The notes under the pieces are model-generated. The model saw only the letters and a list, made by a program, of their open reading frames with translations, was not told the DNA's origin and did not search any database. Positions 11,744 through 64,000 of a DNA stretch of 64,000 nucleotides are shown here, piece after piece (within the stretch, counting starts at the first letter, position 1; the number at the start of each line of letters is the position of its first letter). The stretch comes from Candidatus Nomurabacteria bacterium. GTDB lineage: Bacteria > Patescibacteriota > Patescibacteriia > HK-STAS-PATE-3. Location: the NCBI GenBank assembly GCA_023898465.1, contig CP060223.1, positions 480,001-544,000 on the forward strand, in the 5' to 3' direction. Made by a program: the position numbers and the translations under genes.

Positions 11744-11753
11744 ACTTGTACAA

Positions 11754-12518: not shown

Positions 12519-12519
12519 G

Positions 12520-13137: not shown

Positions 13138-13143
13138 AGCTCA

Positions 13144-23713: not shown

Positions 23714-23719
23714 TGTTCA

Positions 23720-24142
23720 TTACCTCCCAATCACCACGCCAGCAGCGTAGCGATGGTTGTAGTAGCGGAAGCTCCGTCCTTGATATGGGACGAAGAACTT
23801 TCCGTCACGTGTCTTCTTCCCATCGACGTTGAAGGATGTCCAGAGATACTTGCCCTCCGGATACCACTTCACGAAAGTCGGACATGTTCCGTCCAACGTG
23901 AATTGGTCCAGAGGATTCCTGTCAGAATCGTAGACGATCACTCGTTGCGTGAAATCCCGAAGTGGACCAGTGTTGGCGAAGATGACTTCCCCGCCTCCAG
24001 TCGACTCCACCACCTCGTGTCCATGCGCGACAGGGTTGTCGCACACGAAAACTTCGTGACAGAAGCGAGCTGTCGGTCCGCAACCCGTGAGGAGGGTCAC
24101 GCCAGCAGTCAACAACATGATGACAAAGAGCGAGCGGTTCAT
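23720..24142 (-). CDS. putative lipoprotein, unknown function
   Basis: Signal peptide with lipobox LLTGC. SD GGAGGAAAGG upstream. 140 aa. Confidence 0.55.
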   Translation of the reverse strand: MNRSLFVIMLLTAGVTLLTGCGPTARFCHEVFVCDNPVAHGHEVVESTGGGEVIFANTGPLRDFTQRVIVYDSDRNPLDQFTLDGTCPTFVKWYPEGKYLWTSFNVDGKKTRDGKFFVPYQGRSFRYYNHRYAAGVVIGR

Positions 24143-24187
24143 TTTCCTTTCCTCCGTAGCTAGAGTGCTTCCAATTGTGAACAGAGC

Positions 24188-24216
24188 ATGATAGCATATT
24201 TTCTCTATTTTGTCAA
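24188..24216 (-). promoter_or_regulatory. sigma70 promoter TTGACA-N17-TATCAT driving the lipoprotein operon
   Basis: Read directly on the minus strand. Confidence 0.55.
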
Positions 24217-24316
24217 GAGGAGTAATAAATAACCTCCAACCGAAAGCTGAAGATGGCCATCTTCAGCTGCGAATACTATTGCCCATGCACTCCTCTACTT
24301 GCTACACTTCCCCTAC

Positions 24317-25693
24317 ATGGAACTCCAGCTATTCAACACACTGACACGACAGAAAGAAATATTTACTCAACCAGACCAGAGTCCGGTAAAAATGTATTCA
24401 TGCGGACCAACGGTGTATGGCTTCGCGCACATTGGTAATCTCCGCACCTATGTGTTTAGCGACCTCCTCCGCCGAACTCTTGAGTACAATGGTTTCAAAG
24501 TTGCCCAAGTCATGAACAGCACCGACGTTGGACATCTCACCGACGATGCTGATCAGGGAGAAGATAAAGTCGAGCAACAAGCCAAACGTGAAGCAAAAAG
24601 TGCGCTCGAGCTCACTCGTTCCTATGAGGAAGCCTTTCTTCATGATTTAGATGCCCTGCATATCGAACGCCCTACCCAATGGCTACGTGCGAGCGAACAC
24701 ATCCAAGAACAAATTGCCTTGATTCAACAACTTGAGGCAAAAGGGGTTACCTATCAGACTAGCGATGGAATTTATTATGACACCAGCACCTTCCCCCGCT
24801 ACGGCGAATTCGCCCGACTACATACGGCCGGACAACAGGAAGGCGCCCGCGTGCAAGTGAATACTGAGAAGCGTCATCCGACTGACTTTGCTCTGTGGAA
24901 GTTCAGTCCAGCTAACCAACAGCGCCAAATGGAATGGGGTTCTCCTTGGGGAGTTGGCTTCCCGGGCTGGCATCTAGAGTGTTCAGCTATGGTGATGAAA
25001 GCCTTTGGACCGACTGCTGATATTCACACCGGCGGTATTGATCATATTCCTGTCCACCATACGAATGAAATTGCCCAGAGCGAAGCAGTGACCGGCCAAG
25101 CGCTGGCCCGTTTCTGGCTGCATGGCGAATTCCTTATAATAGACGAGGGTCGTATGGGTAAATCTGAAGGAAATGCGCTTACCTTAAAAACACTGCAGGC
25201 AAAGGCCTTTGATCCTATCGCCTACCGCTTCTGGCTATTGCAAACTCATTATCGCACCAAGTTAAACTTTACCTGGGAAGCTCTCGAGGCAGCCCAGCGA
25301 GGTTGGCAAAACATGACTGCCGAAATAGAGCGTTGGGGCGCTATAGAGCCGGGACAAAGGAATGAAGATTTTGAGCAGCGCTTCCACGAAGCCATCAACA
25401 ATGATTTAGATCTGCCAAAATCTATGGCTATAACTTGGGAGTTGTTGCGCTCGGAAATACCTACCAATGATAAACTGGCCACCCTCTTAGGTTTTGATCG
25501 AGTTCTTGGACTAGGTATTGAAAGCATCCGCCCAATTACGCTGCCTGAGGAATTAAACACCTTATTACAAGAGCGCGAAACAGCCAGACAGGCAAAGGAC
25601 TGGGAAAAGGCGGATACGCTTCGTCAGCAACTTCTCGATGCTGGGTATGTAGTTGAGGATCGACCAAGCGGCGCTTTTGTCCGCCGAGCCTAA
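24317..25693 (+). CDS. cysS: cysteine--tRNA ligase
   Basis: MELQLFNTLTRQKEIF...MYSCGPTVYGFAHIGNLRTY (HIGH-type motif), WGVGFPGWHLECSAM, GKSEGN (KMSKS-type). I place the start at the ATG at 24317. Confidence 0.9.
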   Translation: MELQLFNTLTRQKEIFTQPDQSPVKMYSCGPTVYGFAHIGNLRTYVFSDLLRRTLEYNGFKVAQVMNSTDVGHLTDDADQGEDKVEQQAKREAKSALELTRSYEEAFLHDLDALHIERPTQWLRASEHIQEQIALIQQLEAKGVTYQTSDGIYYDTSTFPRYGEFARLHTAGQQEGARVQVNTEKRHPTDFALWKFSPANQQRQMEWGSPWGVGFPGWHLECSAMVMKAFGPTADIHTGGIDHIPVHHTNEIAQSEAVTGQALARFWLHGEFLIIDEGRMGKSEGNALTLKTLQAKAFDPIAYRFWLLQTHYRTKLNFTWEALEAAQRGWQNMTAEIERWGAIEPGQRNEDFEQRFHEAINNDLDLPKSMAITWELLRSEIPTNDKLATLLGFDRVLGLGIESIRPITLPEELNTLLQERETARQAKDWEKADTLRQQLLDAGYVVEDRPSGAFVRRA

Positions 25694-40034: not shown

Positions 40035-41186
40035 CTAATTATCTATTTCAAAATCCCAGAGTGCTTGTACCTGCGACGCGCTTAGGCCGGTGCGTGTCGC
40101 AATCTCTTGAGCCAAACTTGAGGTGCTGGTATTTGCAGAGGTCCACTCATAGCGCTGTGTATCACCACGGCGGGCTTTAATTTCTGTGCCATCTTCACGT
40201 ACCCGGACTTCTATTTCCCATTGGGCTTCTTCTTCATCGCCGTGATCCTCTGAATCGTTTGAATTACTATTACTGTTATGTGAATTGGTATCATCATTCA
40301 CATTTCCTTCATGAGAGTTGGTTGCATCTACATGCGTATTCTTATTATCATTTCCATGATCATCATTGGTGTCAGAATGGTCATCACTGCTATTGGCATT
40401 TTGCAGATCTACACCATCATACTCAATTTTGATAGCTGCCCGAACTTGGGCTTCGCTTAAGCCTAAACGGTCGGTAACTGCTTTAATAATTTCTTCACGA
40501 TCAGTCGTAGTCAGGGTAAACTCACTGTGCTGATTTGCTACTTCAGCCTGAACAAAGGCTTGTGCACCAGCTACGTGCACTTCAATTTCAATTCGCTGAA
40601 GACTATGACTGTTTTGTGCGTCTTCAATCTCACGCAGTTTTACTTCAACGTTACTTAGCGTCGCTGCAGCATGCTCATTTTCTTTGGCTTCTAATTCATC
40701 GCGCACTTCAGCTACGGTTTGTTGCGCATTTTGCAGAGCGGAATTTACATGATCAGCAGCATCTCGAGCTAGTTGCTCCTTTTGCTCTTGCTCTAACTCA
40801 GCTAGCTCTTTTGCTCGCTCAGCTGCAATCTCAGCCTGGATGCGGAGTCGCGCCTCAGCTGAGGTGGCTAAATTTAAACGGACTTGCTCGACGGCTTGAT
40901 CAATACCAAAGAGCCAATCTCCTGGCTTGGCATTATTCGCTGCGAGGACAGTGCCGGTGCCGCTGCCTAATAACACGATAGCGATAAGGATGCTTGCAAT
41001 CATATTTTTGTGATTAAGGAAAAAACCTGATCGCTGCTTATATCGATCAGCTTCCGGGACTGTTACGCTCGATGCAGCCATACGCAAACGAGCCTCAATA
41101 CGTTCACGGGCAGCCGGAGATAAAGACTGAGAATGAGACATCTTTAACAGCTTGATAATTTCTTTTGATGAAAAATGTTTCGACAT
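40035..41186 (-). CDS. anti-sigma-factor-like membrane protein (DUF5667-like): cytoplasmic head, TM helix, coiled coil, His/Asp/Asn-rich region
   Basis: Lies immediately downstream of the ECF sigma gene. One TM helix (ASILIAIVLLGSG). Two similar ...GLS(E/A)(A/S)QV... modules. Confidence 0.55.
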   Translation of the reverse strand: MSKHFSSKEIIKLLKMSHSQSLSPAARERIEARLRMAASSVTVPEADRYKQRSGFFLNHKNMIASILIAIVLLGSGTGTVLAANNAKPGDWLFGIDQAVEQVRLNLATSAEARLRIQAEIAAERAKELAELEQEQKEQLARDAADHVNSALQNAQQTVAEVRDELEAKENEHAAATLSNVEVKLREIEDAQNSHSLQRIEIEVHVAGAQAFVQAEVANQHSEFTLTTTDREEIIKAVTDRLGLSEAQVRAAIKIEYDGVDLQNANSSDDHSDTNDDHGNDNKNTHVDATNSHEGNVNDDTNSHNSNSNSNDSEDHGDEEEAQWEIEVRVREDGTEIKARRGDTQRYEWTSANTSTSSLAQEIATRTGLSASQVQALWDFEIDN

Positions 41187-41190: not shown

Positions 41191-41736
41191 TTACGAATAA
41201 GAGAGTTGTTCCATTTCCTTGCGTAAGGCTTGCAAAGCCCTATGTTTCAATACGCGCACATTGAGAGCACTGATCTGCATTACTTTTGCCACTTCACTTA
41301 TACTTAGATCCTCTCGATAAAGCATATGGAGCAGAGTTGCGTAGCGTTCAGGAAGGCGGGTTAAGGCTGATTCCATTTCCCGCTCCATTATTACATCTGG
41401 CATCTCATCCGGATCACTTGATAAAGTATGACTCACGCTCTCAATATCAACCTGGGTGCGTTGGCCACGATAATGATCAATCAAGCGGAAACGGGCAATT
41501 TGAAAAAGCCAGGTAGAGAATTTTGCATGTTTCTGCTCCTTATATCGGGGCAATGAGCGAATCATTTCAAGAAAAACAGTTTGGGTTAAATCCTCAGCTG
41601 TTTCCTGACTACTGACCCGCATAAGCAAGAAACGGAACACCCGGTCTCCGAAAAGGTGGAAAAGTTCGGCCACCCCTTCTTGATCCCCTTGTTGCGCTCT
41701 GGCGACGATTTCCTGTACTTGGCTTTCGTGTTGCAT
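41191..41736 (-). CDS. ECF-type sigma-70 family RNA polymerase sigma factor
   Basis: Region 2 (DLTQTVFLEMIRSL..Y....KFSTWLFQIARFRLIDHYR) and region 4 (ISEVAKVMQISALNVRVLKHRAL). Confidence 0.9.
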   Translation of the reverse strand: MQHESQVQEIVARAQQGDQEGVAELFHLFGDRVFRFLLMRVSSQETAEDLTQTVFLEMIRSLPRYKEQKHAKFSTWLFQIARFRLIDHYRGQRTQVDIESVSHTLSSDPDEMPDVIMEREMESALTRLPERYATLLHMLYREDLSISEVAKVMQISALNVRVLKHRALQALRKEMEQLSYS

Positions 41737-42745: not shown

Positions 42746-43528
42746 TTAAGGCCGGAGAGTACCGGAAAACATTTGCCAGGCTAGAGCTGATTTCGCCACC
42801 AGGGACAAAATCATATAGGCCTTTTCACCGTAGAGATAGTCCTGCCATTTCCCTATCTTCTTATACTGCAGGACCATGTTAATCGCGAAGATGTTAAAGG
42901 TGACAAAGATGGTGGCCACAATGAAATAAACAAAGGTAGGAATCTCCACTCCGGTCGACTGTACCGCGCCAATGAAGAAAGCAACAATGACCAGCCAGGG
43001 AATTAAGCCAGCCAAAACTCCTATCCAGTACGAAAGCCAATTCGTATGCTTGGTCGTCTGATTATGTACTTCCATCATCAAGCCCATGAGATTCATAATC
43101 GCATTCAAGGCAAACAGCGAAATGAGTAGCCAAAGATCGTACACACCACAAAGCATGGCAATAACTACAATCATAACTGACGAGGATAAGGCATACTCAG
43201 CCCAACGCAGCTTGTTGATGCCCTTTTTCAAATTCTCCTCATACCATTCCCGCAAAGGTCCGGCTAGAAGGAAATGCGCAAAAGCAGAAAGGAAGAGAAA
43301 GACCGCTACGGTGGGGCCTAAGCGTAAGTCAAACAAATGCTCAGGAAGTGGAGCTACACCAAAAACTGGATTATTTGGATCGATTTTCAGGTATGAAGTA
43401 ACAACTGGTAAAGATGAATTATTGCTTATCAAAACCATAATGACGCCTTGCACGAAGTGAAGGGCGGCCATTGACCAATTCCAGACTTGTAGTTTTTTTA
43501 ACTGCTCTTTTTGACTACGCATTTTCAT
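42746..43528 (-). CDS. heliorhodopsin
   Basis: 260 aa, 7 TM. RWAEYALSSSVMIVVIAMLCG and GEKAYMILSLVAKSALAWQMFSGTLRP closely match my recollection of heliorhodopsin 48C12 (RWVEYSLSSSVMIVLIAQICG; GERAYIVLSLVAKSALAWQIFSGTLIPA). This includes the Schiff-base Lys and the counterion Glu. Confidence 0.85.
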   Translation of the reverse strand: MKMRSQKEQLKKLQVWNWSMAALHFVQGVIMVLISNNSSLPVVTSYLKIDPNNPVFGVAPLPEHLFDLRLGPTVAVFLFLSAFAHFLLAGPLREWYEENLKKGINKLRWAEYALSSSVMIVVIAMLCGVYDLWLLISLFALNAIMNLMGLMMEVHNQTTKHTNWLSYWIGVLAGLIPWLVIVAFFIGAVQSTGVEIPTFVYFIVATIFVTFNIFAINMVLQYKKIGKWQDYLYGEKAYMILSLVAKSALAWQMFSGTLRP

Positions 43529-46219: not shown

Positions 46220-46541
46220 AATCCCCTGTTGAAGCTTGCCGCACCCAGCGCTGCTCAATATAGAGCACTCGCCACCACCATCGCCCTAAGAAATACCCAC
46301 CAATCGCTCCAAGTAGTAACAAGCCAATTTGAATGTATGGTGGAAGCGCACATCCCCAGGTCCAATGTATAACCTGTCCATTTTTCTCAGCCCAGCTTAA
46401 ATACCACTGCTCAATTCCTAAATGTAACAGCAAACTTAACAGCACGCCGAACACAGTAGCGCTAATGAGATAAAGTGCATGTTTGAACGGGGTTGCTTTA
46501 AGTGGTCCGCGATGAAACATATTTAGAAAAGATTTAACCAA
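46203..46541 (-). CDS. small membrane protein
   Basis: 2-3 TM helices. Overlaps both neighbours by a few codons. Confidence 0.4.
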   Translation of the reverse strand: MVKSFLNMFHRGPLKATPFKHALYLISATVFGVLLSLLLHLGIEQWYLSWAEKNGQVIHWTWGCALPPYIQIGLLLLGAIGGYFLGRWWWRVLYIEQRWVRQASTGDYEEKS

Positions 46542-49500
46542 CCAAAGAGGTCTTGCACTGATCCTAGGATTACCTGCACAACTGTTTGTTCTTGCTGTGG
46601 AGTAAGAATAGTCAGAGGCTCAGACACCGAGGTCTGTCCACTGGAATCCGTGCTCTCCACCTTGAACTGATACACCGAACCTGGCTCAAAACTTGTCAAA
46701 ACGACAACGTGCCGTTTCGTATAGTTTGTATCAAGTGGCGTGGCTTCGGTAATTGCTTCATCAGCACTGGCAACACCCTGTCGATAGTACACTCGACTAG
46801 TGGCTGGCTCATTTGTTAGCCAGCTGATGATGGTTTGGACTTTAGTATCACGGCCCGGGGAAAGGGCTGAGTCAGTTTGAATCTGCGAGATAAGCGGAGG
46901 CGCATTCTCATCGCCGGTCACAAAGGAGTCAAGCGTCTTGGAAACCGTATTGCCATCTGCATCAACACTTACCAACTCAATTGCGTAAGTCACTCCAGAC
47001 TCAAAACTATCTACAGTCACCTGATGAATAATGGTTTGCGTATCATCTCGAACACTGCTTAACTCATCGACCGCTTTGATGTTATTGCGATAAGGTATCA
47101 CCCGTACAGTGGCATCTGCATCACGAGTGGTGGTCCAGCGGAATACCGCTTCCTCGCTTGATATTTTTTCGACGGCATAATTTTGAATATCAAAAACCTG
47201 CGGATCAGTAGTGAAACTAAAGTCTGCACTTTGCGTTGTCTGGCTAATCTTTGTTCGACTACGCACTTGGTAATGATAGGTTGTATCAGGCTGTAAGTTG
47301 TAAACCGTAACTGAATGGGTCGTGCTATAGGTTTCCGCATCACCCACCACCTGAGTATACTGTTGTGCCAGAGCAAAGTCAGCATCTGAAGCGTAAGCTA
47401 CCAGGGCATTAGAGTCTTTATCAGTTCTCCATTGGATAGTGACTGAAGTTGGACCAACATCCACGCGAGGCTCTCCACTAATAAGCGGAGTAGGAATTAT
47501 TTTTGATAACTCCTCGATGAGTTGATACTGCTCTTCTAAACTTAGCTCTAAAATATCAATGCTAACATTGCCATAGAGATCATTCAGTAGATCAAGATTT
47601 TCTTCAAGGATATTCTTAATCTCATCAGGATTGTTTCTATCGATTGGTGCAGTGCCAGACGTAGTGAATGTTTTATCGCCGGTAATCGACGTGTTGCCGC
47701 TTGCATCAACGGAAATAACTCGATAATGATAAGTAGACCCACTGTTTAATTGTTGCAGAGTAAGGCTATGACTGGTGGCATAAGTCCAGTCACCATAAAT
47801 AGTTCCGTAAACTGTGGTAAGGCCAAATTGAATAAAGCTATTCGCTTCCTCACTTGTAGTCCAACGCACAGTGGCAGCGCTATCGCTAATGTTTACCACC
47901 TCGATGCCGGTTATGCTTGGATTTGTCTCATCCTTACTACCATCAATAGCATCTTGTTCACGTTGCTCTACATCTGATTCCTCAGACAGCATTTCTAAAG
48001 TGCTAAAGGATTTTTCTGTACTCGTTGTGCTATTACCTGAAGCATCAACTGACGAAACAGTGTAATAGTATGTCGTCTTAGGGCTGAGATTACTTAAGGT
48101 AACTAAATGGGTTAGGTTGAGACTTTCGTCTAAGCTCGTTGTAACCGTATAATTTCCCGAGCTTGTCCCATAACGCAATTGAGATGTTGCTCGCTCGTTA
48201 CTTAGCCAGGTAACTACTGCTCGAGTGTCAATGACCGGATCGGCCTGTATATTTGATAAGACTGGTGGCACTGTATCACTAGTCGTAACAAAGGAGTAAT
48301 ATTCACCACCGTTGTTATCAAAAGCTACGCCTGAGGTTACATAGTAGTAATACAGGGTACCGTTTGTCAGTCCTGATAACTTCACTAAATGATTCATCGT
48401 TGGTGGAGTATCCAGACCAACCTCAATGGCATCACTCATATCTGAATTCACTGAATAGAAGACGTGTGAATCAGACTCTACATCAGTTAACCAGCTTATA
48501 CTCGCTTCAGTATTACTCACCTCTTGCGTACTTACATTAGAAATTGCTGGACCACTTAAGGTTGTTACCGTATATCCATCACCTCCGTCAGAGTCAGTTG
48601 CCGAGTTCCCACCCGGATCCTCTGAACGAACTCTGAAATAGTACGTTGTCGAGGGATCGAGTCCGGTAAGTATGACTCGGTGAACACCAACACCTGCTTC
48701 ATTATCCATCAGAGTTGCAACACCGATAGTCGTACCAAAATCAGCTGGGGTATCTGAATATCCAATAGTAGAATCAGAGAGCTCATCTGTCTCCCAGGTA
48801 ATAGTGACCGTCTGAGTACCTATCTGACTGGTTGCTACATTTGAAATAGTTGGAGGCGTACTATCAGTACCTCCTTGTCCGTTGGCAGACTCTGAGACAA
48901 CCGCCGAGTAGTAAGAAAAATTTCCATCGCTATCTTCGCTTGATATCTTATACCAATAGCTTGTATCTGCTGTAACACTTTGATCGAGATAATAGTTAAT
49001 TGCTCTATCGCTTATGTGGCTAATCGTACTATAGCTCGTGCCGTCTGTTGAACGATACACCGTGTATTCGCTAAAGCCTGGGTCGGGCAGTGCTACTGCC
49101 TTCCAAGAAATAAAGAGTTGATAGGCATCAGCTTCTACATTACTAATATCACGAATAATCACTGTTGTTGGTGTTTCTGGTGTTACCGCTGATGCACTAC
49201 TGCTGGTATTTTTGTACGCATCACGGAAACGGACATAGACTGTATCTGGATCAGTAACCAAGGAAATAGTTGAGGAAGAGGCATAGCTTACCCACGTCGC
49301 GCCAACAAAGTCACTCCGCAAAGATACTTGCATTTCAAGGCTGCTATCATCAGAGCCGGAGAGATCGAGAGAAGCGGGGTCAGTACGTGCGTCCACCACA
49401 ATTGCCGGACTACCGAGGACTGGGTCTTTTACATCAAGAGTAAAGGCGCTTGTTTCATCGCTGGCTGTATTATTTGCTAATTCCCCATCATCAATAGTGA

Positions 49501-51943
49501 CTCTAATTAAGGTAGTGGTGCTATAGGTCCCATCGATTTGGGCTTTTGCGTTCCAGCTTGCACTATATTCAGTGTAATTAGTTTCATCGATGTCTTTAGG
49601 ATCGGTTGCCCCGGATGATAGCCCTGTGGTCACGTTAAACCAATCAAGGCCATTATTTAACGAATATTCAAAACTCGGGGTCACCTGTCCTGAGCCAGAG
49701 CTGCCATCTGGGTCACGAACTGAGTAAGTGATAAGCACGCTACCATCACTGCTTTGCTGGGTAGCTGTTGGTGCGCCCTCAAACTCAGGCGGTGCATTTA
49801 CCACATACACCATAGTTGCATCATACAGTGTTGGCGCCGCATAACCGTTTGAAGACTCTAGCCATACCTTATACTGCATCCACTGATCATTCGTACTATC
49901 GGTATGAGTGCTATTCACCGTCTCTCCGCCACTTGGATCAGTATAATAATCCCCTGTGCCGCTAGGACCAAGCCAGCTTGACCAAGTACCAGGAGATCCT
50001 GAGCTATCTGGAGCGGTCCGAATCTGAAATTTGATTTCAGTACCACTCGGTAGATTTTCTGTCCAGCGCATACCCCCCAGCGCATTTAATGCATCGGTGC
50101 TATCAAAAGCAGATGAGGTCAGTGTTTGTGATGATGGGTATTGTTGATAACCGATGCTAATGTCTTCAAAGTGCGGCGAAGCACTAGTATCACTCGTCGA
50201 CATACTCACTCGATATTGAATGTATTGCTCACCATCCGTGACGCAAGCGTCAGAACTAATATCATTCCCGCTCGTTAAATTACCGCATCCGGACCAATCA
50301 GGTGCTCCACTCATGCCTGAATCATTTGAGGTACGAGCCTGAACAGTTAAAGTGGTGCTTCCTGGAACGGTAGCATTCCAACTTAAGGTATCAAAAACAG
50401 TGTTTCCGTTTGTATTAAGTGCCGCTGAGGTGAAAGTGCCCGGTGTAAGATAGGTTGAAGGAATATTAATGGCTAATCCGCTTGCACCATCAGCCATATA
50501 GCTAGTGGTGCCTGATTGCAACACATGTTTTCCGAGCGCGGTAAGTGCGGTGCTGCTCACTTCTGATGGAGAGGTTGGATTGCTCACATCAAGCACTTTT
50601 AAGCTTGCGTCATCAATAATGTACAAGTCTGTGCCTACCGCCTCTACTGAACGCACATCAGTCAAACCTGTACTATAAGCCCCTATGCGAACCGGGACAG
50701 ATGGATTACTAATATCAATAATAGTGACACCAACCGAGGAGTCTGCGGTATATGCGTAGCTACCTACTATAGCTACATCATATCCTTCATCAAAGGCTTC
50801 AAAATCATACGAATATCCTCGTACACCGCTAATAGAACCCGGGGTTCCAATATTGTATATGTTTAAACTCGCAGCCTCTCCGTAATCATCGTACCCAACC
50901 CCATATAAGTAATCACCATCAGCAACCAGGCGATACGGTCTTGCTTGATATGAAACGTTTGACGCACTGAGACTTGGGTTTACCGGATCCGCCAAAGACA
51001 ACACATAAATGCGCATCACACGACAAAAACCTGAACAACCTCCTACTGCAAAACCGGCATACAAATATGATCCACGAAGGTATACGCTGTACACCTCTCC
51101 CGTGCTTGTATATTGCCCTACTAAGCTCGGCGCATTTTTGTTGCTAATATCCACTACACGAACATCACCGGTATAGTCAGCAAGATACGCATAGTTGCCT
51201 GAAACGGTAACGTCTCGCGCGTCGTTTGTGTCGACACTACCAAGGGGCTGAGGTGATAAAGGATTCGAAATATCAAAAATTTTCAAACCATCAACGCCAT
51301 CGGCAATATAGGCATAATTACCGTCGACAAAAACTCCTTTTGCGTCAGTGGTGTCGGAATAGGCAGTGCCACCACTTGATTGGGCCAACTCAACATAGGC
51401 CCCACTTCCCGATCCCGTGACTTGAGTGCTACTCGTGGTACCTGTACCAAAATCAGCATCACTCGTTTGCACGAGAGACTGCGACGTGGTAGTTAAGCTT
51501 AGTTCCGTGCCAATGTTAAGGTTTGCATCAGCTGCTGAGTACTCATTCCAACCTGTCTGATCACCTGGATGCTGAGCAGTATTTGCAGTTTGACCACCGC
51601 TCCAGTCTGTCTGCACCCAATAATAAGTGGCCGCTCGAGAGGAACCAATAGTGAGAGCCCAAAATGTCACGCTAATGAGTAAAACAGACGAAATAATTGC
51701 TCCTGCGTAACGTCGAGAACTTTTAAAAGGCTTTATTACCTTTTGCGCTACCTTTTTATTACGTTTTAAGGAAATGGCAAGTACCCATCCAAAATATAAT
51801 GGGATAAACGCGGTATAAGGACGCTGCTTCTTGCGTTTCGCGCGAAGAAGCGTTGTTTTTTTCTGTAAGCTGGCTGATAAAGAAAATATTCCGAAACCAG
51901 CTCTTTTTGGGGGGCTTTTTTTCGCCGACCTTTTTTTGGTCAC
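46523..51943 (-). CDS. giant (1806 aa) anchored surface protein: LVIVD-repeat beta-propeller + multiple Fn3/PAP-N-like domains
   Basis: N-terminal basic region and TM helix. LVIVD-type repeats (YAYIADGVDGLKIFDISNPLSP; NYAYLADYTGDVRVVDISNKNAP; YAYTADSSVGVTIIDISNPSVP). At least 8 repeats of the pattern T.T..W.T....S.V.Y......Y........H.V.L..L.P.T.Y.Y.V.S.D..GN. Confidence 0.8.
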   Translation of the reverse strand: MTKKRSAKKSPPKRAGFGIFSLSASLQKKTTLLRAKRKKQRPYTAFIPLYFGWVLAISLKRNKKVAQKVIKPFKSSRRYAGAIISSVLLISVTFWALTIGSSRAATYYWVQTDWSGGQTANTAQHPGDQTGWNEYSAADANLNIGTELSLTTTSQSLVQTSDADFGTGTTSSTQVTGSGSGAYVELAQSSGGTAYSDTTDAKGVFVDGNYAYIADGVDGLKIFDISNPLSPQPLGSVDTNDARDVTVSGNYAYLADYTGDVRVVDISNKNAPSLVGQYTSTGEVYSVYLRGSYLYAGFAVGGCSGFCRVMRIYVLSLADPVNPSLSASNVSYQARPYRLVADGDYLYGVGYDDYGEAASLNIYNIGTPGSISGVRGYSYDFEAFDEGYDVAIVGSYAYTADSSVGVTIIDISNPSVPVRIGAYSTGLTDVRSVEAVGTDLYIIDDASLKVLDVSNPTSPSEVSSTALTALGKHVLQSGTTSYMADGASGLAINIPSTYLTPGTFTSAALNTNGNTVFDTLSWNATVPGSTTLTVQARTSNDSGMSGAPDWSGCGNLTSGNDISSDACVTDGEQYIQYRVSMSTSDTSASPHFEDISIGYQQYPSSQTLTSSAFDSTDALNALGGMRWTENLPSGTEIKFQIRTAPDSSGSPGTWSSWLGPSGTGDYYTDPSGGETVNSTHTDSTNDQWMQYKVWLESSNGYAAPTLYDATMVYVVNAPPEFEGAPTATQQSSDGSVLITYSVRDPDGSSGSGQVTPSFEYSLNNGLDWFNVTTGLSSGATDPKDIDETNYTEYSASWNAKAQIDGTYSTTTLIRVTIDDGELANNTASDETSAFTLDVKDPVLGSPAIVVDARTDPASLDLSGSDDSSLEMQVSLRSDFVGATWVSYASSSTISLVTDPDTVYVRFRDAYKNTSSSASAVTPETPTTVIIRDISNVEADAYQLFISWKAVALPDPGFSEYTVYRSTDGTSYSTISHISDRAINYYLDQSVTADTSYWYKISSEDSDGNFSYYSAVVSESANGQGGTDSTPPTISNVATSQIGTQTVTITWETDELSDSTIGYSDTPADFGTTIGVATLMDNEAGVGVHRVILTGLDPSTTYYFRVRSEDPGGNSATDSDGGDGYTVTTLSGPAISNVSTQEVSNTEASISWLTDVESDSHVFYSVNSDMSDAIEVGLDTPPTMNHLVKLSGLTNGTLYYYYVTSGVAFDNNGGEYYSFVTTSDTVPPVLSNIQADPVIDTRAVVTWLSNERATSQLRYGTSSGNYTVTTSLDESLNLTHLVTLSNLSPKTTYYYTVSSVDASGNSTTSTEKSFSTLEMLSEESDVEQREQDAIDGSKDETNPSITGIEVVNISDSAATVRWTTSEEANSFIQFGLTTVYGTIYGDWTYATSHSLTLQQLNSGSTYHYRVISVDASGNTSITGDKTFTTSGTAPIDRNNPDEIKNILEENLDLLNDLYGNVSIDILELSLEEQYQLIEELSKIIPTPLISGEPRVDVGPTSVTIQWRTDKDSNALVAYASDADFALAQQYTQVVGDAETYSTTHSVTVYNLQPDTTYHYQVRSRTKISQTTQSADFSFTTDPQVFDIQNYAVEKISSEEAVFRWTTTRDADATVRVIPYRNNIKAVDELSSVRDDTQTIIHQVTVDSFESGVTYAIELVSVDADGNTVSKTLDSFVTGDENAPPLISQIQTDSALSPGRDTKVQTIISWLTNEPATSRVYYRQGVASADEAITEATPLDTNYTKRHVVVLTSFEPGSVYQFKVESTDSSGQTSVSEPLTILTPQQEQTVVQVILGSVQDLFGWLNLF

Positions 51944-58886: not shown

Positions 58887-58963
58887 TCTTTACTTTTCTT
58901 GTAGAATGCGATAAGTATTGTACAGATTTTGGATAGGTCGCACATTAAAATGGAGGTAATCGG

Positions 58964-59563
58964 ATGTCGCTTATTCAGGCTCGTGTACACGAGCAAATAG
59001 CCTTCAGCAATCAAGCTGATTTCACACGACTACTGCAGCGCTATCTCGTCGCGGACCAAATCCAGCCGGGGCATCAGAACGGTACAGCTGAAGTCTCGGA
59101 AAGGCCGCGGGTGGTTCGTTTTCCTGGATGCCTGGTAGTGACGGCCGCCTATCGAAACCTCGCAGTTGGAGGGATCGACCGGTCAGACCTGCACAGACTG
59201 CATCACTTGCACGCATCACTTCGCGCCGAGCTGTATGAACCTGATGAGCTGGCCCGGGTTGGATTCTGGTCGCAGACTGATCCGGCTGCCGTCGTCACTC
59301 TCACAGCCCTGGGTGGCGGGATTCAAGAGGTTCGCTTCTTCGAATCCGAATGGCAAAGGTGCGATCAAATTCCACTCTTCTTCCAACGACTCCGTGAAGA
59401 GCATGGCGATGACGCAAATATCATCGTGCTAGAAGCGGCAGCTGCGAAGGAGATGCTCGAACTGGGCATCACGCCAAAGAGCTTGCAGTGTTTCTTGGTC
59501 CAGATCGATGCCCACCGGGTTTCTGTCGTCGACAACTTCATGCCAACTTTCGTGCCCAAGTAG
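58964..59563 (+). CDS. hypothetical protein (199 aa), GC-rich
   Basis: GGAGG SD 7 nt upstream. Followed by a clean terminator. No motif recognised. Confidence 0.5.
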   Translation: MSLIQARVHEQIAFSNQADFTRLLQRYLVADQIQPGHQNGTAEVSERPRVVRFPGCLVVTAAYRNLAVGGIDRSDLHRLHHLHASLRAELYEPDELARVGFWSQTDPAAVVTLTALGGGIQEVRFFESEWQRCDQIPLFFQRLREEHGDDANIIVLEAAAAKEMLELGITPKSLQCFLVQIDAHRVSVVDNFMPTFVPK

Positions 59564-59575
59564 GAGGATCTCCCA

Positions 59576-59607
59576 GGCCCTGAGGTAAACACTTCAGGGC
59601 CTTTTTT
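59576..59607 (+). terminator. intrinsic terminator
   Basis: GGCCCTGA-N10-TCAGGGCC + U6. Confidence 0.65.
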
Positions 59608-59621
59608 ATTTTACGTATGAC

Positions 59622-59649
59622 TTGACAAAAGCCCTCTTTTTAGTATACT
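59622..59649 (+). promoter_or_regulatory. sigma70 promoter TTGACA-N16-TATACT
   Basis: Read directly, ~70 nt upstream of the GTG start at 59719. Confidence 0.5.
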
Positions 59650-59718
59650 GGCCGGTCTAGAAATAGTAGTAGCTATCGAACGGAACGTATATTCACAAAG
59701 GGAAGAGGAGGCTCAAAC

Positions 59719-61161
59719 GTGGTGCAGAAGACTGCCACGGCTTGGGTCGTGGCATTCATTCTTCTGTTCTGCCACGCTCAAGCCTCGACTGCTACAGTCA
59801 CTCATTTCGTTTTTGGCATGCGCGGCAACGCGAATGTCGACGTGTGTGACAACGGCGACCTTCGCCAGTTTCACACCACGCCGGCAGGTGGACTCGTATT
59901 CACCAGTATGGGAGGTGGCGAATTCGAGATCGGTCTCGAGGGTCAAGTCAGCTGCAGTCGTGATGGAGGAGGTGGAGAAAACCTCATCCAAAACGGCGCT
60001 TTTGACCAGGGCACTTGCTCAGAATGGGAATTGGAGGACCCCAATGGACGCGCTGCAGCATCCTGTAGCAATGAGGGTCGCGTCACCGTGCAGAGTAGCG
60101 GACAATACTACGAAGTCCAGCTCAAGCAATCGATCCCGCTGATCAATGGTCAATGGTATCGTCTGAGCTTCGACGGCGACAGTAGCGTTCGCCACATCAT
60201 ACCGGTCGGAATTATCAATCCGGCCAGCTATGATTCGATCGGCCTCTGGGCTGATTGCGATCTGCACACCGATCGACGCAGCTTCGAATACCTTTTTCGC
60301 TCCAGTGAGACCATCTCTGATGCACGCTTCAGTTTCTACATTGGTGAACATCCGGCGACCTATCGTTTCGACAACGTAACGATAGTGCCGGTTGATCCCA
60401 GTGCAGACTGTTTCCGTGCTCCAGGTGAACTCATTGTGAACGGAGGGTTCGAGTGCGATCAGGTCTGCCAGCACGCTTGGCGATTCGAGGATCACTTTGG
60501 ACCCGGCTATGCTCTGTGCGATGCTGTGTCCCATAGTGGTGCTCACTCAGCCAAGCTACGACCAGCTCAAGCGGGTCAGTACTACGAAACGCAGTATCAG
60601 CAGCTTGTCACTGTCCAACAGGGACAACGCTATGAATTGCGTTTCTACGCCCGGACCAATCGTGACCCGCAGACTATTGTGGTCGAGCTGGTTGACCCAC
60701 AGAGCTTTGCGAACCGCGGACTCGTCTTTGGTCCCGTGCTCAACAGTAGCTGGACTGAGGTGCGACAAAGCTTCACTGCCAATCGTAGTGGTGTTGCTCG
60801 TCTCGGTTTTGCGGTTGGTAACTGGGACCCTGGTACTCCGGTCTGGATCGACGACGTCAGCTTGCGTCCGGTACTTAGCGTCGGAGGCGGTGACGCACAA
60901 AGCGCGACACCATCAGCCCTGGCCACCCAAGCGAACGCTGCAGTCTTTGCTCTAGAGCAACGAGCTGATGTTCGTATCAACGTCTTTGACGTGGGAGGAC
61001 GTCAAATTGCTGGCGAGTCTCGCTCCTTGTCTGCCGGGACTCATACCTACATCTGGGACGGATTGCTGCACAGCGGTGTCCGTGCTCCCAGCGGCATTTA
61101 CTTTGTCCAGGTCACCGGCGCTAGTGTCCATGCCATCAAACGCATTGTAATGGTGCGTTAG
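59719..61161 (+). CDS. secreted protein with two CBM4/9-like jelly-roll modules and a FlgD-Ig / T9SS type-A-like C-terminal domain
   Basis: Signal peptide. Duplicated NLIQNGAFDQG..EWE / ELIVNGGFECD...AWRFED openings with F.FY / LRFYAR and W(I)DDVS(L) endings. C-terminal RINVFDVGGRQI....LSAGTHTYIWDG......APSGIYFVQV........KRIVMVR. Confidence 0.65.
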   Translation: MVQKTATAWVVAFILLFCHAQASTATVTHFVFGMRGNANVDVCDNGDLRQFHTTPAGGLVFTSMGGGEFEIGLEGQVSCSRDGGGGENLIQNGAFDQGTCSEWELEDPNGRAAASCSNEGRVTVQSSGQYYEVQLKQSIPLINGQWYRLSFDGDSSVRHIIPVGIINPASYDSIGLWADCDLHTDRRSFEYLFRSSETISDARFSFYIGEHPATYRFDNVTIVPVDPSADCFRAPGELIVNGGFECDQVCQHAWRFEDHFGPGYALCDAVSHSGAHSAKLRPAQAGQYYETQYQQLVTVQQGQRYELRFYARTNRDPQTIVVELVDPQSFANRGLVFGPVLNSSWTEVRQSFTANRSGVARLGFAVGNWDPGTPVWIDDVSLRPVLSVGGGDAQSATPSALATQANAAVFALEQRADVRINVFDVGGRQIAGESRSLSAGTHTYIWDGLLHSGVRAPSGIYFVQVTGASVHAIKRIVMVR

Positions 61162-61193
61162 AGGCTGGAACCATGCGTCAACACATCTACAAC

Positions 61194-61230
61194 AGCGCCT
61201 GAAGAGATTTACTCTCTCAGGCGCTTTTTT
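61194..61230 (+). terminator. intrinsic terminator
   Basis: AGCGCCTGA..GAGA / TCTC..TCAGGCGCT + U6. Confidence 0.65.
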
Positions 61231-61287
61231 GTATATGAAAAGCCGCCAAAGTTCCGAAGAAGCTTGGCGGCGAGAGACGAGGAGGGA

Positions 61288-61611
61288 TCAGGCGCCCTCA
61301 GTACTGACCTCCTCCTTCCCGCAAAGATGCAGGATGAATGACAATAGCGTGAGGAACCCGAGGATCCCGCCTGCAATAAGCAGGAACCAGCGGCCGAGGT
61401 CTCCGAAGAAACCCCGATAGACTCCTTCGATGAAGGGACGATGACCCGTGCCTTCAAACACGAGTACCGTGGGGAATCCTCCCCAAAACATGAGGAGGGA
61501 GATGATCGCAAGAGTCGCCACCGACACACCCATGGCAAAGGGCGACAGAATGATCGCCAGTCCCATGTGCTTTCCGACCAGCTTGAGCAAACCCGTAAAC
61601 AAGCGTGCCAT
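61288..61611 (-). CDS. small 3-TM membrane protein, GC-rich
   Basis: I place the start at MARLFTG, with GAGGAA upstream. Promoter TTGACA-N17-TATTAT at 61684-61712. Terminator GCCGCCAAAG/CTTGGCGGC at 61242-61270 + U-run. Confidence 0.5.
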   Translation of the reverse strand: MARLFTGLLKLVGKHMGLAIILSPFAMGVSVATLAIISLLMFWGGFPTVLVFEGTGHRPFIEGVYRGFFGDLGRWFLLIAGGILGFLTLLSFILHLCGKEEVSTEGA

Positions 61612-61683
61612 AATAGTATTCCTCGTATGTACCGACCTCAAAAGGTCGAGTTTGAGTCAATGTACAAAACGTATCTGGGCAAT

Positions 61684-61712
61684 ATAATAGCACATTTCGT
61701 TTATTTTGTCAA
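61684..61712 (-). promoter_or_regulatory. sigma70 promoter TTGACA-N17-TATTAT
   Basis: Read directly on the minus strand. Confidence 0.5.
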
Positions 61713-61721
61713 TATATAAAG

Positions 61722-62996
61722 CTAAAATCTTGCTAATCTTGGCGAATTATCATGCAATACTGTGCTTGCTGCAATAGTTTTACGGAAGCCCACTCGCTCT
61801 TGCGCATGCTTCCGTACATTCCACATTGCTCCCCAACGCAACATATACGCACCATAACGCTCATGCACTCGATCAATCACTGCTTCAACAGCATCGTGAT
61901 TTACCTCGGGCCAAATCTTGAGCTGACCGCTCCTTGGGCGTAAGCGAAAAGTGCCTATGCCTAAAAAAGTAAGGAAGCGTCCATGAACTTCTGGTGCTAA
62001 CATATCCCAGGCCAATTGAAAAAGCTTTCGCCCTTCGCGTAGCCCATCACCTAACTTACGCTGTCCACCGTGTGAAGCGCCTTCAGCCATACGGGTATAT
62101 TCACTTGGCACACTGCGAGCCATTGCCCAGATGCCATGGGCTTCTAAGTTCTTCTGGCGCAATTCCCGAGCAGTCTTTTCGCAAAGCTTCATCAACACCG
62201 CTCGGTGAAAAGTGTGATCGCGCGTACGTTCACGCAAGACATGCGTATGTCCAATTGACTTCGGGTCTCGCTCCTCCTGCACACCGCCTAATTCAATCCC
62301 TTGCACATTTGCCCAGAGCTCATAGCCACGCACTCCGAGAGCCTCCATTAGATTAGTAACTGGATAGCGATAAAGATCCTCGAGAGTAAAAATACCTAAA
62401 GCATGCAGGCGACGTTCATAGCCCTTATTAATCCCCCAAGCCTCAGTCACTGGTCGGCCGGCCAAGTAGCTTGGCACCTGGCGCCGCTCAAGCACAACCG
62501 TCCCACCCTTTGGCGCAATATCAGAGGCGAACTTAGCTAACCAGCGAGTTGGTGCTACCCCAATGGAACACCGCAGCCACTCGCCCACCTCGCGAAAAAT
62601 ACGCTGACGAAAAGCCTCACCTATCTTCGCCACTTCATCAAGTGAATGGGCGTCACCAGTGAAATCAACAAAAGCCTCGTCAATTGAGTAAGGCTCGATA
62701 TCCTCAGAGTACTCAGCCATGATACGAAAAATTGCTTCAGTGGTGGAATGATACTTTGGTGGATCAACCTCTACCACCTTCAGGGCAGGATAAATGTGCA
62801 AACCATCCTTCACCCGCATACCAGTCACAATGCCTAACGCTTTTGCTTCTCGTGAAGTGGCAATCATGCAGCCTCCCGGCGCCATGGTGGCGGCAATGCC
62901 GACCGGCCGACCTCGCAACTTCGGATTCGCCTGCTGCTCGACTGAGGCGAAATACGAGTTCATATCGAAATGGAGAATGAGGCGAGAATGAGACAT
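61722..62996 (-). CDS. dinB: Y-family DNA polymerase IV
   Basis: ILHFDMNSYFASVEQ, SIDEAFVD catalytic motifs. 424 aa. Confidence 0.9.
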   Translation of the reverse strand: MSHSRLILHFDMNSYFASVEQQANPKLRGRPVGIAATMAPGGCMIATSREAKALGIVTGMRVKDGLHIYPALKVVEVDPPKYHSTTEAIFRIMAEYSEDIEPYSIDEAFVDFTGDAHSLDEVAKIGEAFRQRIFREVGEWLRCSIGVAPTRWLAKFASDIAPKGGTVVLERRQVPSYLAGRPVTEAWGINKGYERRLHALGIFTLEDLYRYPVTNLMEALGVRGYELWANVQGIELGGVQEERDPKSIGHTHVLRERTRDHTFHRAVLMKLCEKTARELRQKNLEAHGIWAMARSVPSEYTRMAEGASHGGQRKLGDGLREGRKLFQLAWDMLAPEVHGRFLTFLGIGTFRLRPRSGQLKIWPEVNHDAVEAVIDRVHERYGAYMLRWGAMWNVRKHAQERVGFRKTIAASTVLHDNSPRLARF

Positions 62997-63136
62997 ACGA
63001 TTACTTAACTAGATTGACAAAACAAGCTTATGGGTGGTAAGTAAGAGGACTGTCTGATGCCCCTGAATCGGGTGTCTGTGAGCACTTACTCACATCCGTG
63101 GTGGAGACAGTGTTCCTTACACAGGAGGTAAAACCT

Positions 63137-63655
63137 ATGAGTCGCAAGAGTGCTCACCAAACGAGGACTCCATCAGACATCAACGAAGAATCACCCTTTC
63201 TCAGAACGCTCTACTATTCCTTGATGAAGTGGAGTACGGTCCCGAGGAAAGAGATCGTGCCCGAACTACAGGACGAAATGAGACTGCGAGCTGAGACAAT
63301 GGGTCTCAGCGTCACTCTCTCCAGCGGCGTTCAGGGACCGAGCTACACCGACGTCGTGCTTGGGCTTTACGTCCTGCTGACCCGTAGCTACGTCGAGAGG
63401 TCTATCCAGAACATCATCTGGGGAGTCCTGGGTCACTGCACAAATCATCAGTTCGCCAAGTTCATCCGTTTGACCAACGCGCGGCACAACCCTAATCCCG
63501 AGAGCAGGACAAGGGCGATGAGGGCGCTCTATGAAATCGCTTCATTGGGCCATAGTCGCTGGCTCAATGTTGGGAAGTCCTGGCAACGGGGCGCGAGGTG
63601 GCGCATGAACGAGCTGATCAACTCTGGTCGCTTCGAGGCCCCAATCTATTGGTAA
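63137..63655 (+). CDS. hypothetical protein (172 aa), GC-rich
   Basis: I place the start at MSRKSAH, preceded by AGGAGG-N8. Terminator at 63667-63698. Confidence 0.5.
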   Translation: MSRKSAHQTRTPSDINEESPFLRTLYYSLMKWSTVPRKEIVPELQDEMRLRAETMGLSVTLSSGVQGPSYTDVVLGLYVLLTRSYVERSIQNIIWGVLGHCTNHQFAKFIRLTNARHNPNPESRTRAMRALYEIASLGHSRWLNVGKSWQRGARWRMNELINSGRFEAPIYW

Positions 63656-63666
63656 GGAAGCTACAT

Positions 63667-63698
63667 AGCCCAGACACTCCGGTGTGCTGGGCTTTTTT
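63667..63698 (+). terminator. intrinsic terminator (shared with the convergent minus-strand gene)
   Basis: AGCCCAG.CAC-tccg-GTG.GCTGGGCT + U6. Confidence 0.6.
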
Positions 63699-63884
63699 CT
63701 ACTTCACAAACTCCACCTTTTCACACTCACTGCAATACATAGGCTTCATCGCATGCGTCACAAAGGAAGGTAAAGCACGCATAGGCTTAGCGCATTGACT
63801 GCAGCGCTTTGTGCCCCGCTCCTGTTTTGTTTCTCGAATCGTACGCGGTGTCATATATTTTCGTTTGCCCTCCATAGACACCAT
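63699..63884 (-). CDS. small zinc-ribbon protein (61 aa)
   Basis: CSQC ... CSEC pair, basic N-terminus. Confidence 0.4.
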   Translation of the reverse strand: MVSMEGKRKYMTPRTIRETKQERGTKRCSQCAKPMRALPSFVTHAMKPMYCSECEKVEFVK

Positions 63885-63943
63885 TCCAAGCGTATGGTGT
63901 CAAAACAAAGATCAAAAGTGTTGTCCTGGCTTGAAACAGCAAA

Positions 63944-64000
63944 ATGATAATAAAGCTTATTGCCATCTCGGCGCCGATAGGTCAGATTCACCCGCTCCAC
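63944..64000 (+). CDS. possible 5' end of a CDS truncated by the window edge
   Basis: ATG followed by an open frame MIIKLIAISAPIGQIHPLH to the end of the window. Too short to name. Confidence 0.25.
   Translation, partial: MIIKLIAISAPIGQIHPLH

Follow-up and report, generated by a model that had tools for sequence, protein, structure and literature searches.

In other bacteria, the T9SS CTD serves to admit proteins to a secretion machine in the outer membrane. How does a secreted protein with a tail of this appearance come to be encoded in a Candidatus Nomurabacteria genome, and what could the tail do there? The gene in question lies near the right end of a stretch of 64,000 nucleotides of contig CP060223.1 (hereafter the window). 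A preliminary description of the window had left three alternatives: recent cargo of horizontal gene transfer (HGT), a repurposed Ig-like surface domain, or an island foreign to the contig.

Gene structure and protein layout

The gene occupies positions 59719..61161 of the forward strand, exactly as first described; it starts with GTG and encodes a 480-aa product followed by a stop. On two Logan contigs, genes called independently include the identical 480-aa product. Predicted expression signals on the same strand give the gene a promoter, a Shine-Dalgarno site and a terminator of its own: (i) a promoter-like site of the sigma-70 type (59622..59649) consists of TTGACA, a 16-nt spacer and TATACT with 11 of 12 matches, and the region upstream of the relative P0005 (see below) contains a similar 'CTTGACAAAA[G/C]CCCT'; (ii) a Shine-Dalgarno sequence, AAGAGGAGG (59704..59712), is read 6 nt 5' of the GTG start; and (iii) an intrinsic terminator (61194..61231) is an inverted repeat that gives a GC-rich hairpin of 13 bp with six T residues behind it and an RNA fold of −26.2 kcal/mol (z = −7.4).

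The protein, predicted to be secreted, combines tandem CBMs with an Ig-like domain (FlgD_ig / T9SS type-A-like) at its C-terminus. Its parts are, in order, a signal peptide, a conserved N-terminal region of ∼60 aa, two CBM4/9/22-type modules, a linker and a C-terminal Ig-like beta-sandwich. The Sec-type signal peptide (aa 1–22, 59719..59784, forward strand) reads MVQKTATAWVVAFILLFCHAQA followed by S, has a predicted helix at residues 2–19 and is probably cut after A-Q-A. It shares 48% identity with the matching region of P0005 and has no lipobox; a lipoprotein signal was rejected on the residue at position −1 of the conserved Cys18, which is Phe or Leu. The N-terminal region (aa 23–85, 59785..59973, forward strand) has no assigned fold and no match in a Pfam scan, and its AlphaFold pLDDT is about 30–35. 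It carries the conserved Cys43 and Cys79 and is 37% identical to P0005. The linker (aa 386–404, 60874..60930, forward strand) is of low complexity, rich in Gly, Ala, Ser and Thr, with pLDDT <50 at aa 389–403 and 26% identity to P0005.

Tandem CBM modules

Both modules are CBM4/9/22-type beta-sandwiches on the forward strand. Module 1 (aa 86–228, 59974..60402) holds a Pfam CBM_4_9 stretch and is modelled with pLDDT about 90–97; module 2 (aa 229–385, 60403..60873) is its internal duplicate. For the CBM region as a whole, pLDDT is about 90 or higher. CBM_4_9 (PF02018) matches the protein in two stretches with E 1.5e-16 and 61.4 bits against a gathering threshold of 25.9, the best stretch being aa 237–366 in module 2. 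The two modules are 29% identical to each other (E 1e-11), and a GQYYE-coding repeat is spaced 474 nt apart across them. Among PDB sequences, a phmmer search matches aa 122–224 to the CBM4 of laminarinase 16A (1gui, E 0.05). The same structure is found by Foldseek with the whole AlphaFold model at TM 0.76, together with CBM22 and CBM4-2 structures; these CBM fold matches reach E about 1e-13, with TM to the target structure of at most 0.76. The two duplicated CBM4/9-like modules of the preliminary description are thus borne out, whereas its term 'double jelly-roll' is a misnomer for two separate tandem CBM beta-sandwiches, which do not form the fused fold of viral capsids. A viral double jelly-roll was rejected: the best 50 of 1,808 structural matches include no capsid protein and are all CBM-containing or other multidomain beta-sandwich proteins.

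The C-terminal domain

The C-terminal Ig-like beta-sandwich (aa 405–480, 76 aa; 60931..61158, forward strand) stands at the extreme C-terminus of the 480-aa protein, which also has the predicted N-terminal Sec signal peptide. It had been described as a T9SS/FlgD-Ig tail, and this holds for FlgD_ig only at the level of curated cutoffs. FlgD_ig (PF13860) passes its cutoff of 27 with the full protein (E 7e-07, 29.6 bits) and with the domain alone (33.6 bits), and the precomputed Pfam annotation of P0001 also gives PF13860. By contrast, TIGR04183 stays below its curated cutoff (20.5 vs 23 bits, E 3.6e-4), as does PF18962 (Por_Secre_tail), which scores 13.9 bits with the full protein and 19.4 with the domain alone against a cutoff of 27. 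Judged from sequence, the E-values of 3.6e-4 to 1.3e-3 on T9SS type-A models still indicate homology despite these sub-cutoff scores. By E-value, both T9SS type-A models and FlgD_ig match significantly, and the agreement goes well beyond chance.

The motifs quoted earlier are likewise present. W-D-G, S-G-I-Y-F and a K-R-I-V-M-V-R end with K474 and R480 are retained, and they fall into the same alignment columns as their counterparts in 21 homologous C-terminal domains. These alignments and profile scores show the domain, at the sequence level, to be homologous to T9SS type-A CTDs. In the aligned columns, the N-terminal PNPFN strand motif is replaced by PSALA, and P0005 shows the same loss. Across the 22 aligned CTDs, FlgD_ig is found in all 22, Por_Secre_tail in 21 and CHU_C in 14. 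All tested homologs that share the CBM + CTD architecture (10/10) pass TIGR04183, at 27.7–40.6 bits against the cutoff of 23. The sequences closest to the domain lie without exception at protein C-termini and finish with K-x-x-[LIVM]-x-[LIV]-[RK].

The fold is an Ig-like beta-sandwich that resembles solved T9SS CTDs, but its best structural match is FlgD and not a T9SS CTD. Elsewhere, S8 proteases carry 9–14 tandem FlgD_ig repeats internally, so this fold is not confined to sorting domains. The C-terminal domain could be read as an unspecialized Ig module of FlgD type that at no time served this protein family as a T9SS signal. On that reading it would provide structural spacing, a stalk on the cell surface or a means of oligomerization, after the model of the Ig/Fn3-like C-terminal domains of Gram-positive surface proteases, and its T9SS resemblance would reflect a shared fold superfamily only. 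We regard this as unlikely, because the closest relatives are strictly C-terminal with the characteristic end, the architecture-sharing homologs all pass TIGR04183, nearly all aligned CTDs match Por_Secre_tail and many match CHU_C, and the target domain runs to the stop after a flexible linker, as is typical of CTDs.

Relatives of the protein

The protein has only one close relative, P0005 (486 aa, 42% identity end to end, E 1e-97), in about 15 billion proteins; the exhaustive HMMER search covered 1.84 billion representatives. In all, 123 hits lie at E below 1e-10. Searches of 5.8 billion clusters and of JGI metagenomes gave no close relative; with the CTD alone as query, which had too few indexed words in common with the clusters, the cluster search likewise gave no match. 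A JGI metagenome scan with the alignment of the target and P0005 gave distant CBM matches only, with short segments at 23–43% identity, and retrieved no member of the family; P0001, P0005 and P0002 were all that came out of a further profile search. Close homologs widespread in CPR genomes at backbone GC, which would have spoken against a foreign origin, were thus not found in these searches.

P0005 comes from 2.2-kb contigs in metagenome assemblies of ENA, among them one from the Rifle aquifer. It matches the window protein in its architecture of six parts, in the N-terminal region and in the conserved cysteines. It differs in passing TIGR04183 (27.9 bits), in its higher GC (gene 0.61, GC3 0.71) and in its downstream gene. 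Between the two proteins the CTD is 41% identical and the CBMs are 41–43% identical; the CTD is as conserved as the CBMs, which gives no sign of relaxed constraint on it. Selection on the tail is compatible with this equal conservation, seen between only two family members. The homolog P0002 adjoins an RND periplasmic adaptor on a contig of 71% GC, which points to a diderm.

The raised-GC patch and its junctions

The gene lies in a patch of raised GC (58950..64000 in the window; GC 0.50–0.57 vs a backbone of about 0.45). The patch continues past the window, ends about 1.5 kb further on in the Logan contig L001 and measures ∼6.5 kb overall, with backbone at about 0.45 GC on both sides. The gene itself has GC 0.556 and GC3 0.565 compared to backbone means of 0.454 and 0.416 (z 3.0 and 2.7). 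Besides the target gene, the patch contains a 199-aa orphan ORF, a 107–117-aa membrane ORF, DinB and several small orphan ORFs. A Pfam scan assigned no family to the 199-aa, 107-aa, 185-aa and small ORFs, Pfam scans of the patch gave no integrase or transposase, and no direct or inverted repeats of note flank it. The right flank carries TrwB-like and DUF8128 genes similar to those of Patescibacteria. The deviating composition, the bounded patch and the lack of close CPR homologs in the searches above support the HGT alternative of the preliminary description, although they do not fully separate it from a repurposed Ig domain or a foreign island.

The junctions also bear on whether the patch belongs to this genome at all. 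The patch or the target gene might come from a co-occurring diderm of the FCB group and have been misjoined to CPR sequence during assembly or binning, in which case no CPR cell would encode the protein. The sharp GC step up at about 58.95 kb fits such an artefact. Two Logan contigs, from two runs, also begin at window position 58877, which coincides with the left patch edge, and one of them ends at 61382; the shared start suggests an assembly-graph branch there. The island was found in runs SRR12358675 and SRR12358676, while the left backbone gene was found in SRR14234116. In the Logan search for an island-free allele or the left junction, the GH77, MnmA and FtsX proteins were not on record, and the sole match of the left-junction search was L127, a 2-kb contig from another run that stops short of the junction. 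We nonetheless consider a misjoin quite improbable, because the independently assembled L001 is 100% identical to the window over 5,124 bp and runs unbroken from the target gene via DinB into genes at backbone GC, where the TrwB-like, DUF8128, sigma-70 and SecDF genes resemble Patescibacteria proteins. Furthermore, the window assembly crosses the left junction, and the two flanks are alike in GC and carry paralogous TrwB-like genes.

The host backbone

The grouping of a TrwB/VirD4-like ATPase, a 173-aa ORF and CysRS is common to the window and six Patescibacteria or unclassified loci, including Kerfeld-, Magasanik- and Doudnabacteria and others. An AAA protein shows 65% identity to one from Patescibacteria, and a heliorhodopsin gene is present at 42746..43528 (329 bits). 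Heliorhodopsins have been reported from monoderms only (PMC8612252). Patescibacteria are thought to have no outer membrane and have many VirD4-like coupling proteins (PMC12102498); two genes for such proteins are seen here. By synteny, the backbone is that of Patescibacteria and not of the FCB or other diderm host that T9SS cargo would imply, and with its heliorhodopsin it looks monoderm, in agreement with the CPR monoderm-like backbone first proposed. The lineage had also been considered one in which T9SS is not expected, and the literature does describe T9SS and CTD proteins as limited to the FCB superphylum (PMC12398890).

Pfam scans of window ORFs of at least 150 aa gave no T9SS components, and no other ORF with a CTD-type domain occurs in about 71 kb (the 64-kb window and 7 kb of L001). 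Other exported proteins in this stretch have an N-terminal hydrophobic segment (signal peptide or membrane anchor) instead. No literature linking T9SS CTDs with CPR or Patescibacteria was found. It is barely credible that the host is a diderm with T9SS or a T9SS-like system, rather than a monoderm CPR bacterium, and the protein its ordinary cargo: the best CysRS match (56%) does come from a Zhuqueibacterota (FCB) MAG whose locus also encodes a canonical CTD protein, but that locus shares nothing with the window except CysRS, whereas the neighbourhood of TrwB-like gene, 173-aa ORF and CysRS recurs in six Patescibacteria or unclassified loci, the heliorhodopsin argues for a monoderm, and neither outer-membrane or T9SS genes nor a second CTD protein occur in the 71 kb. 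An FCB identity of the backbone, taken from the top CysRS match, was rejected on synteny and heliorhodopsin.

Origin and possible role of the protein

The gene probably encodes a non-catalytic, Sec-exported glycan-binding protein that was horizontally acquired by a Patescibacteria genome from a T9SS-bearing diderm, the donor being most likely a member of the FCB superphylum. We counted in favour of this explanation the domain architecture, the TIGR04183 scores of the family, the diderm context of P0002, the Patescibacteria synteny, the heliorhodopsin, the lack of T9SS components and of a second CTD protein in the 71 kb, the GC patch, the existence of one close relative only and the expression signals. 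Counted against it were the failure of both curated T9SS cutoffs, FlgD as the best structural match, the equal conservation of CTD and CBMs, the FlgD_ig repeats in S8 proteases and the absence of an integrase or transposase from the patch.

In such a host, the protein would be a lectin or adhesin exported via SecYEG/SecDF, with its signal peptide cut after AQA. The CBM pair may bind a beta-glucan- or xylan-like polysaccharide, as putative ligand, or a cell-surface glycan outside the cell. T9SS would be neither needed nor available, because there would be no outer membrane to cross. The T9SS-type tail, with no cognate machinery in the 71 kb covered, is best read as vestigial or as a passive Ig module. 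Presumably no longer a sorting signal, it may be a decaying relic, a fate with which the loss of PNPFN and T9SS scores below the cutoffs would agree, or it may have been kept as a passive Ig-like spacer or stabilizing module.

We consider it highly improbable that the tail has been kept for its benefit to a CPR cell that lives as an epibiont on an FCB-group host. One possibility under this assumption is that the tail mimics host cargo and docks on the host's surface T9SS (PorV/attachment complex) while the CBMs grip host glycans. A more modest possibility is that the gene is the molecular trace of a transfer from host to epibiont and so identifies the lineage of the host.

Acquisition from a T9SS-bearing diderm would make this locus a clean, well-bounded case of a secreted protein crossing between bacteria of different cell-envelope types, in which the sorting domain arrives with the gene and the machinery is probably absent in the new host. 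A T9SS-CTD or FlgD_ig annotation in MAGs cannot, on this showing, count as evidence of T9SS. The case also hints that CPR bacteria acquire surface-glycan-binding genes from diderm neighbours, possibly their hosts. As a single case it reveals no new mechanism or system and is a modest curiosity.

Comparison with known systems

We compared the protein with three known systems. Tandem CBMs are represented by CBM22-1/CBM22-2 of Paenibacillus Xyn10C (4xup) and the CBM4 of laminarinase 16A (1gui), and further by CBM4-2 of the Rhodothermus xylanase (2y64) and the surface glycan-binding protein SGBP-B (7kwb). Like tandem CBMs of families 4/9/22, the window protein has two tandem beta-sandwiches with a confident CBM_4_9 match. 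It differs from them in having no glycoside hydrolase or other catalytic domain, and its modules share at most 23% sequence identity with any characterized CBM.

The T9SS type-A reference CTDs are those of P. gingivalis RgpB, PorU and PorZ, T. forsythia mirolase, and F. johnsoniae RemA and NucA. The window domain resembles them as an Ig-like beta-sandwich of ∼75 aa with a G-x-Y-F strand and a near-terminal Lys (K474), placed at the extreme C-terminus behind a flexible linker in a protein with a Sec signal peptide. It differs from them in its sub-cutoff scores in both curated models, its degenerated PNPFN motif and its monoderm-type Patescibacteria host, whose 71 kb covered here contain neither T9SS genes nor a second such domain.

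The FlgD Ig-like domain (PF13860) is D2 of the flagellar hook cap protein FlgD (PDB 7eh9, 3osv and 3c12). The window domain passes the gathering threshold of this family and matches it structurally. The window protein differs from FlgD, however, in having neither the FlgD N-terminal nor the Tudor-like part, in joining the domain to secreted CBMs and in the absence of flagellar genes near its gene. In practice, Pfam FlgD_ig also takes in many non-flagellar extracellular Ig modules.

The gene and its product

The target gene lies at 59719..61161 (+), where the preliminary description had placed it, and encodes 480 aa from a GTG start; an identical 480-aa product is called on two independently assembled Logan contigs. 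Upstream are a near-consensus promoter (TTGACA-16-TATACT, 59622..59649) and, read from the sequence, a Shine–Dalgarno element (AAGAGGAGG) ending 6 nt 5′ of the start codon. A 13-bp hairpin with a T6 run (61194..61231; -26.2 kcal/mol, z = -7.4) terminates the gene, and the terminator of the preceding 199-aa ORF is at 59575..59602. Judged from these predicted promoter, Shine–Dalgarno and terminator elements, the gene forms a transcription unit by itself. The string CTTGACAAAA[G/C]CCCT around the -35 box is common to the promoter regions of the target (59620..59640) and its homologue P0005 (contig L084, ~275..295) although the two proteins are strongly diverged, and this match may be due to chance around the consensus hexamer.

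The protein begins with MVQKTATAWVVAFILLFCHAQA and then S; this stretch is organised into n, h and c regions like a Sec signal peptide and includes an A-x-A site. Together with a predicted helix at aa 2–19, this suggests a Sec signal peptide with a putative cleavage site. The following region (aa 23–85) has no family match and a poor structure model, and is conserved with P0005, including Cys43 and Cys79. Two CBM_4_9 modules (aa 86–228 and aa 229–385; Pfam E 1.5e-16, 61.4 bits vs cutoff 25.9) share 29% identity with each other (E 1e-11), as expected from the internal duplication proposed earlier upstream of the tail. Both are predicted with pLDDT of ~90 or more, and their fold matches include tandem CBM22 (4xup), SGBP-B (7kwb), CBM4 (1gui, TM 0.76) and CBM4-2; the original label of double jelly-roll is better replaced by two tandem CBM beta-sandwiches. 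They are joined to the C-terminal domain (CTD) by a disordered linker (aa 386–404), and the architecture contains no catalytic domain.

The C-terminal domain and its relatives

The CTD is a 76-aa beta-sandwich (pLDDT 88.8 in the domain-only model) that passes the FlgD_ig model (29.6 bits for the whole protein and 33.6 bits for the domain alone; cutoff 27). Against the T9SS type-A models it obtains significant E-values, yet its scores stay below the curated cutoffs (TIGR04183, 20.5 vs 23; PF18962, 13.9 or 19.4 vs 27). The FlgD-Ig part of the earlier T9SS/FlgD-Ig assignment thus stands and the T9SS likeness is significant, but strict curated T9SS-CTD membership does not hold.

The homologues are more informative on this domain than the target's own T9SS scores. 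Searched exhaustively with HMMER, a set of 1.84 billion representatives yielded 3,319 relatives at E ≤1e-3. All ten relatives that were scanned pass TIGR04183 (27.7–40.6 bits), with the domain strictly C-terminal in each and CBMs upstream of it in nine. Among 22 aligned CTDs, FlgD_ig matches all, Por_Secre_tail 21 and CHU_C 14. The target retains the W-D-G, S-G-I-Y-F and K-x-x-x-x-x-R columns, and its shortfall against the T9SS models is largely because the canonical N-terminal PNPFN strand is replaced by PSALA.

Domains of this type are found, too, as internal tandem repeats (9–14 copies) in subtilases such as the homologues P0011 and P0023, in which the FlgD_ig repeats follow a fervidolysin-type prodomain. 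This shows that the module is in wide use as a repeat spacer beyond its terminal sorting role, so that, besides acting as a sorting signal, the fold can be a generic Ig module.

The subfamily is extremely rare: in that search and further profile searches the only close relative is P0005 (42% identity over the full length, E 1e-97), located on 2.2-kb contigs of 58% GC. P0002, more distantly related, adjoins an RND adaptor on a 71% GC contig, which points to a diderm.

Host and envelope

Several lines point to a Patescibacteria backbone with a monoderm envelope, as previously proposed. First, a neighbourhood of a TrwB/VirD4-like ATPase, a 173-aa ORF and CysRS also occurs in Kerfeldbacteria, Magasanikbacteria, Doudnabacteria and other Patescibacteria loci (ATPase identity 35–47%), and one AAA protein shares 65% identity with a Patescibacteria protein. 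Second, heliorhodopsins have been reported from monoderms only (PMC8612252), so a full-length heliorhodopsin at backbone GC (42746..43528, -; PF18761, 329 bits) serves as an envelope marker; it is of some interest by itself on a Patescibacteria contig. Its immediate downstream neighbours encode an ECF-type sigma factor (41191..41736) and a DUF5667 protein (40035..41186). Third, Pfam scans of window ORFs of at least 150 aa gave no match to T9SS or outer-membrane families.

Patescibacteria have abundant VirD4-like coupling proteins and are thought to lack an outer membrane (PMC12102498). Two paralogous TrwB/VirD4-like genes lie within ~50 kb here (window 18239..20581, -, and 5820..7589, -, of L001, a Logan contig extending past the right end of the window), consistent with the surplus of orphan T4CP genes reported for this group. 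The second adjoins a DUF8128 gene (L001 7593..9011, -) weakly similar to TrwB-like regions of Patescibacteria loci.

The other exported proteins of the window also fit such a host: they have a hydrophobic segment at the N-terminus (signal peptide or membrane anchor). A giant protein of 1,806 aa (46523..51943, -) has a single membrane anchor at its N-terminus besides LVIVD repeats and about six repeats of the purple-acid-phosphatase-N/fn3 type, and is probably a CPR cell surface protein. A cluster of exported proteins (7731..13986, -) comprises a 931-aa subtilase that combines FG-GAP repeats with a glucodextranase-B domain, a PDZ protease resembling HtrA, a polytopic membrane protein and two membrane-anchored proteins bearing calcium-binding repeats of the bacterial thrombospondin type-3 kind.

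The best single match of the CysRS is to a Zhuqueibacterota MAG of the FCB group (56%). That locus is high in GC and has nothing but CysRS in common with the window, although a canonical T9SS-type CTD protein is encoded there, ~1.8 kb downstream of CysRS. The window CysRS (GC 0.496) and its adjacent 221-aa orphan ORF (GC 0.551) exceed backbone GC. These observations (window 23498..25693, +, and L003 2989..6997) may represent a second FCB-related transfer, or chance.

Possible function and reading of the tail

According to the literature (PMC12398890), T9SS and CTD proteins occur only in the FCB superphylum, and we found no published report of either in CPR. The absence of T9SS genes applies to the ~71 kb covered, in which no other ORF carries a second copy of the CTD. 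Most likely, the target protein would be exported by Sec, its signal peptide cut, and the mature protein released from, or loosely held at, the single-membrane envelope, where the CBM pair could bind polysaccharide (environmental beta-glucan or xylan, or the glycan of another cell). As T9SS could not read the CTD here, the domain would be a relic, or else serve passively as an Ig module. Loss of the PNPFN motif and the sub-threshold T9SS scores are compatible with a relic. However, active decay is at odds with the confidently predicted fold and with 41% identity to P0005, similar to that of the CBMs (41–43%).

Origin of the gene

The GC (0.556) and GC3 (0.565) of the target gene lie 3.0 and 2.7 standard deviations above those of 42 backbone genes (0.454 ± 0.034 and 0.416 ± 0.054). 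It sits in a raised-GC patch of ~6.5 kb (~58.95 kb to ~65.5 kb in extended coordinates) with DinB and several orphans. Directly 5′ of it is the 199-aa ORF, cytoplasmic-looking and with its own terminator (58964..59563, +; GC 0.555, GC3 0.595), which has no Pfam family and is not found beside P0005. Between the target and DinB is a small ORF (61288..61641, -; 107–117 aa, GC3 0.685) with three predicted membrane segments and no family match. These data support the reading as horizontally acquired cargo, one of three alternatives first offered; it is incompletely separable from the other two, a repurposed Ig-like domain and a foreign island.

We found no integrase or flanking repeats marking the patch. 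L001 and L002, from two sequencing runs, both begin at 58877, which marks the left edge of the patch and lies three codons short of the GH77 stop; L002 ends at 61382, between the target and DinB. The common start could mean that the patch is present in some strains and absent from others, or that the assembly is weak at this point; the ends suggest assembly-graph branch points at island borders, e.g. from strain-level island polymorphism. No alternative junction without the patch was found in Logan assemblies. That a chimeric assembly brought the target into this contig is improbable; in L001 the right flank of the patch returns to ~0.45 GC, with TrwB-like and DUF8128 genes resembling those of Patescibacteria, then sigma-70 and SecDF.

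In brief, the preliminary observation is confirmed and its interpretation supported, within the limits of the missed curated T9SS cutoffs and the ~71 kb scope. The domain families of the target are known ones, met in a host where they were not expected, and do not amount to a new kind of system.
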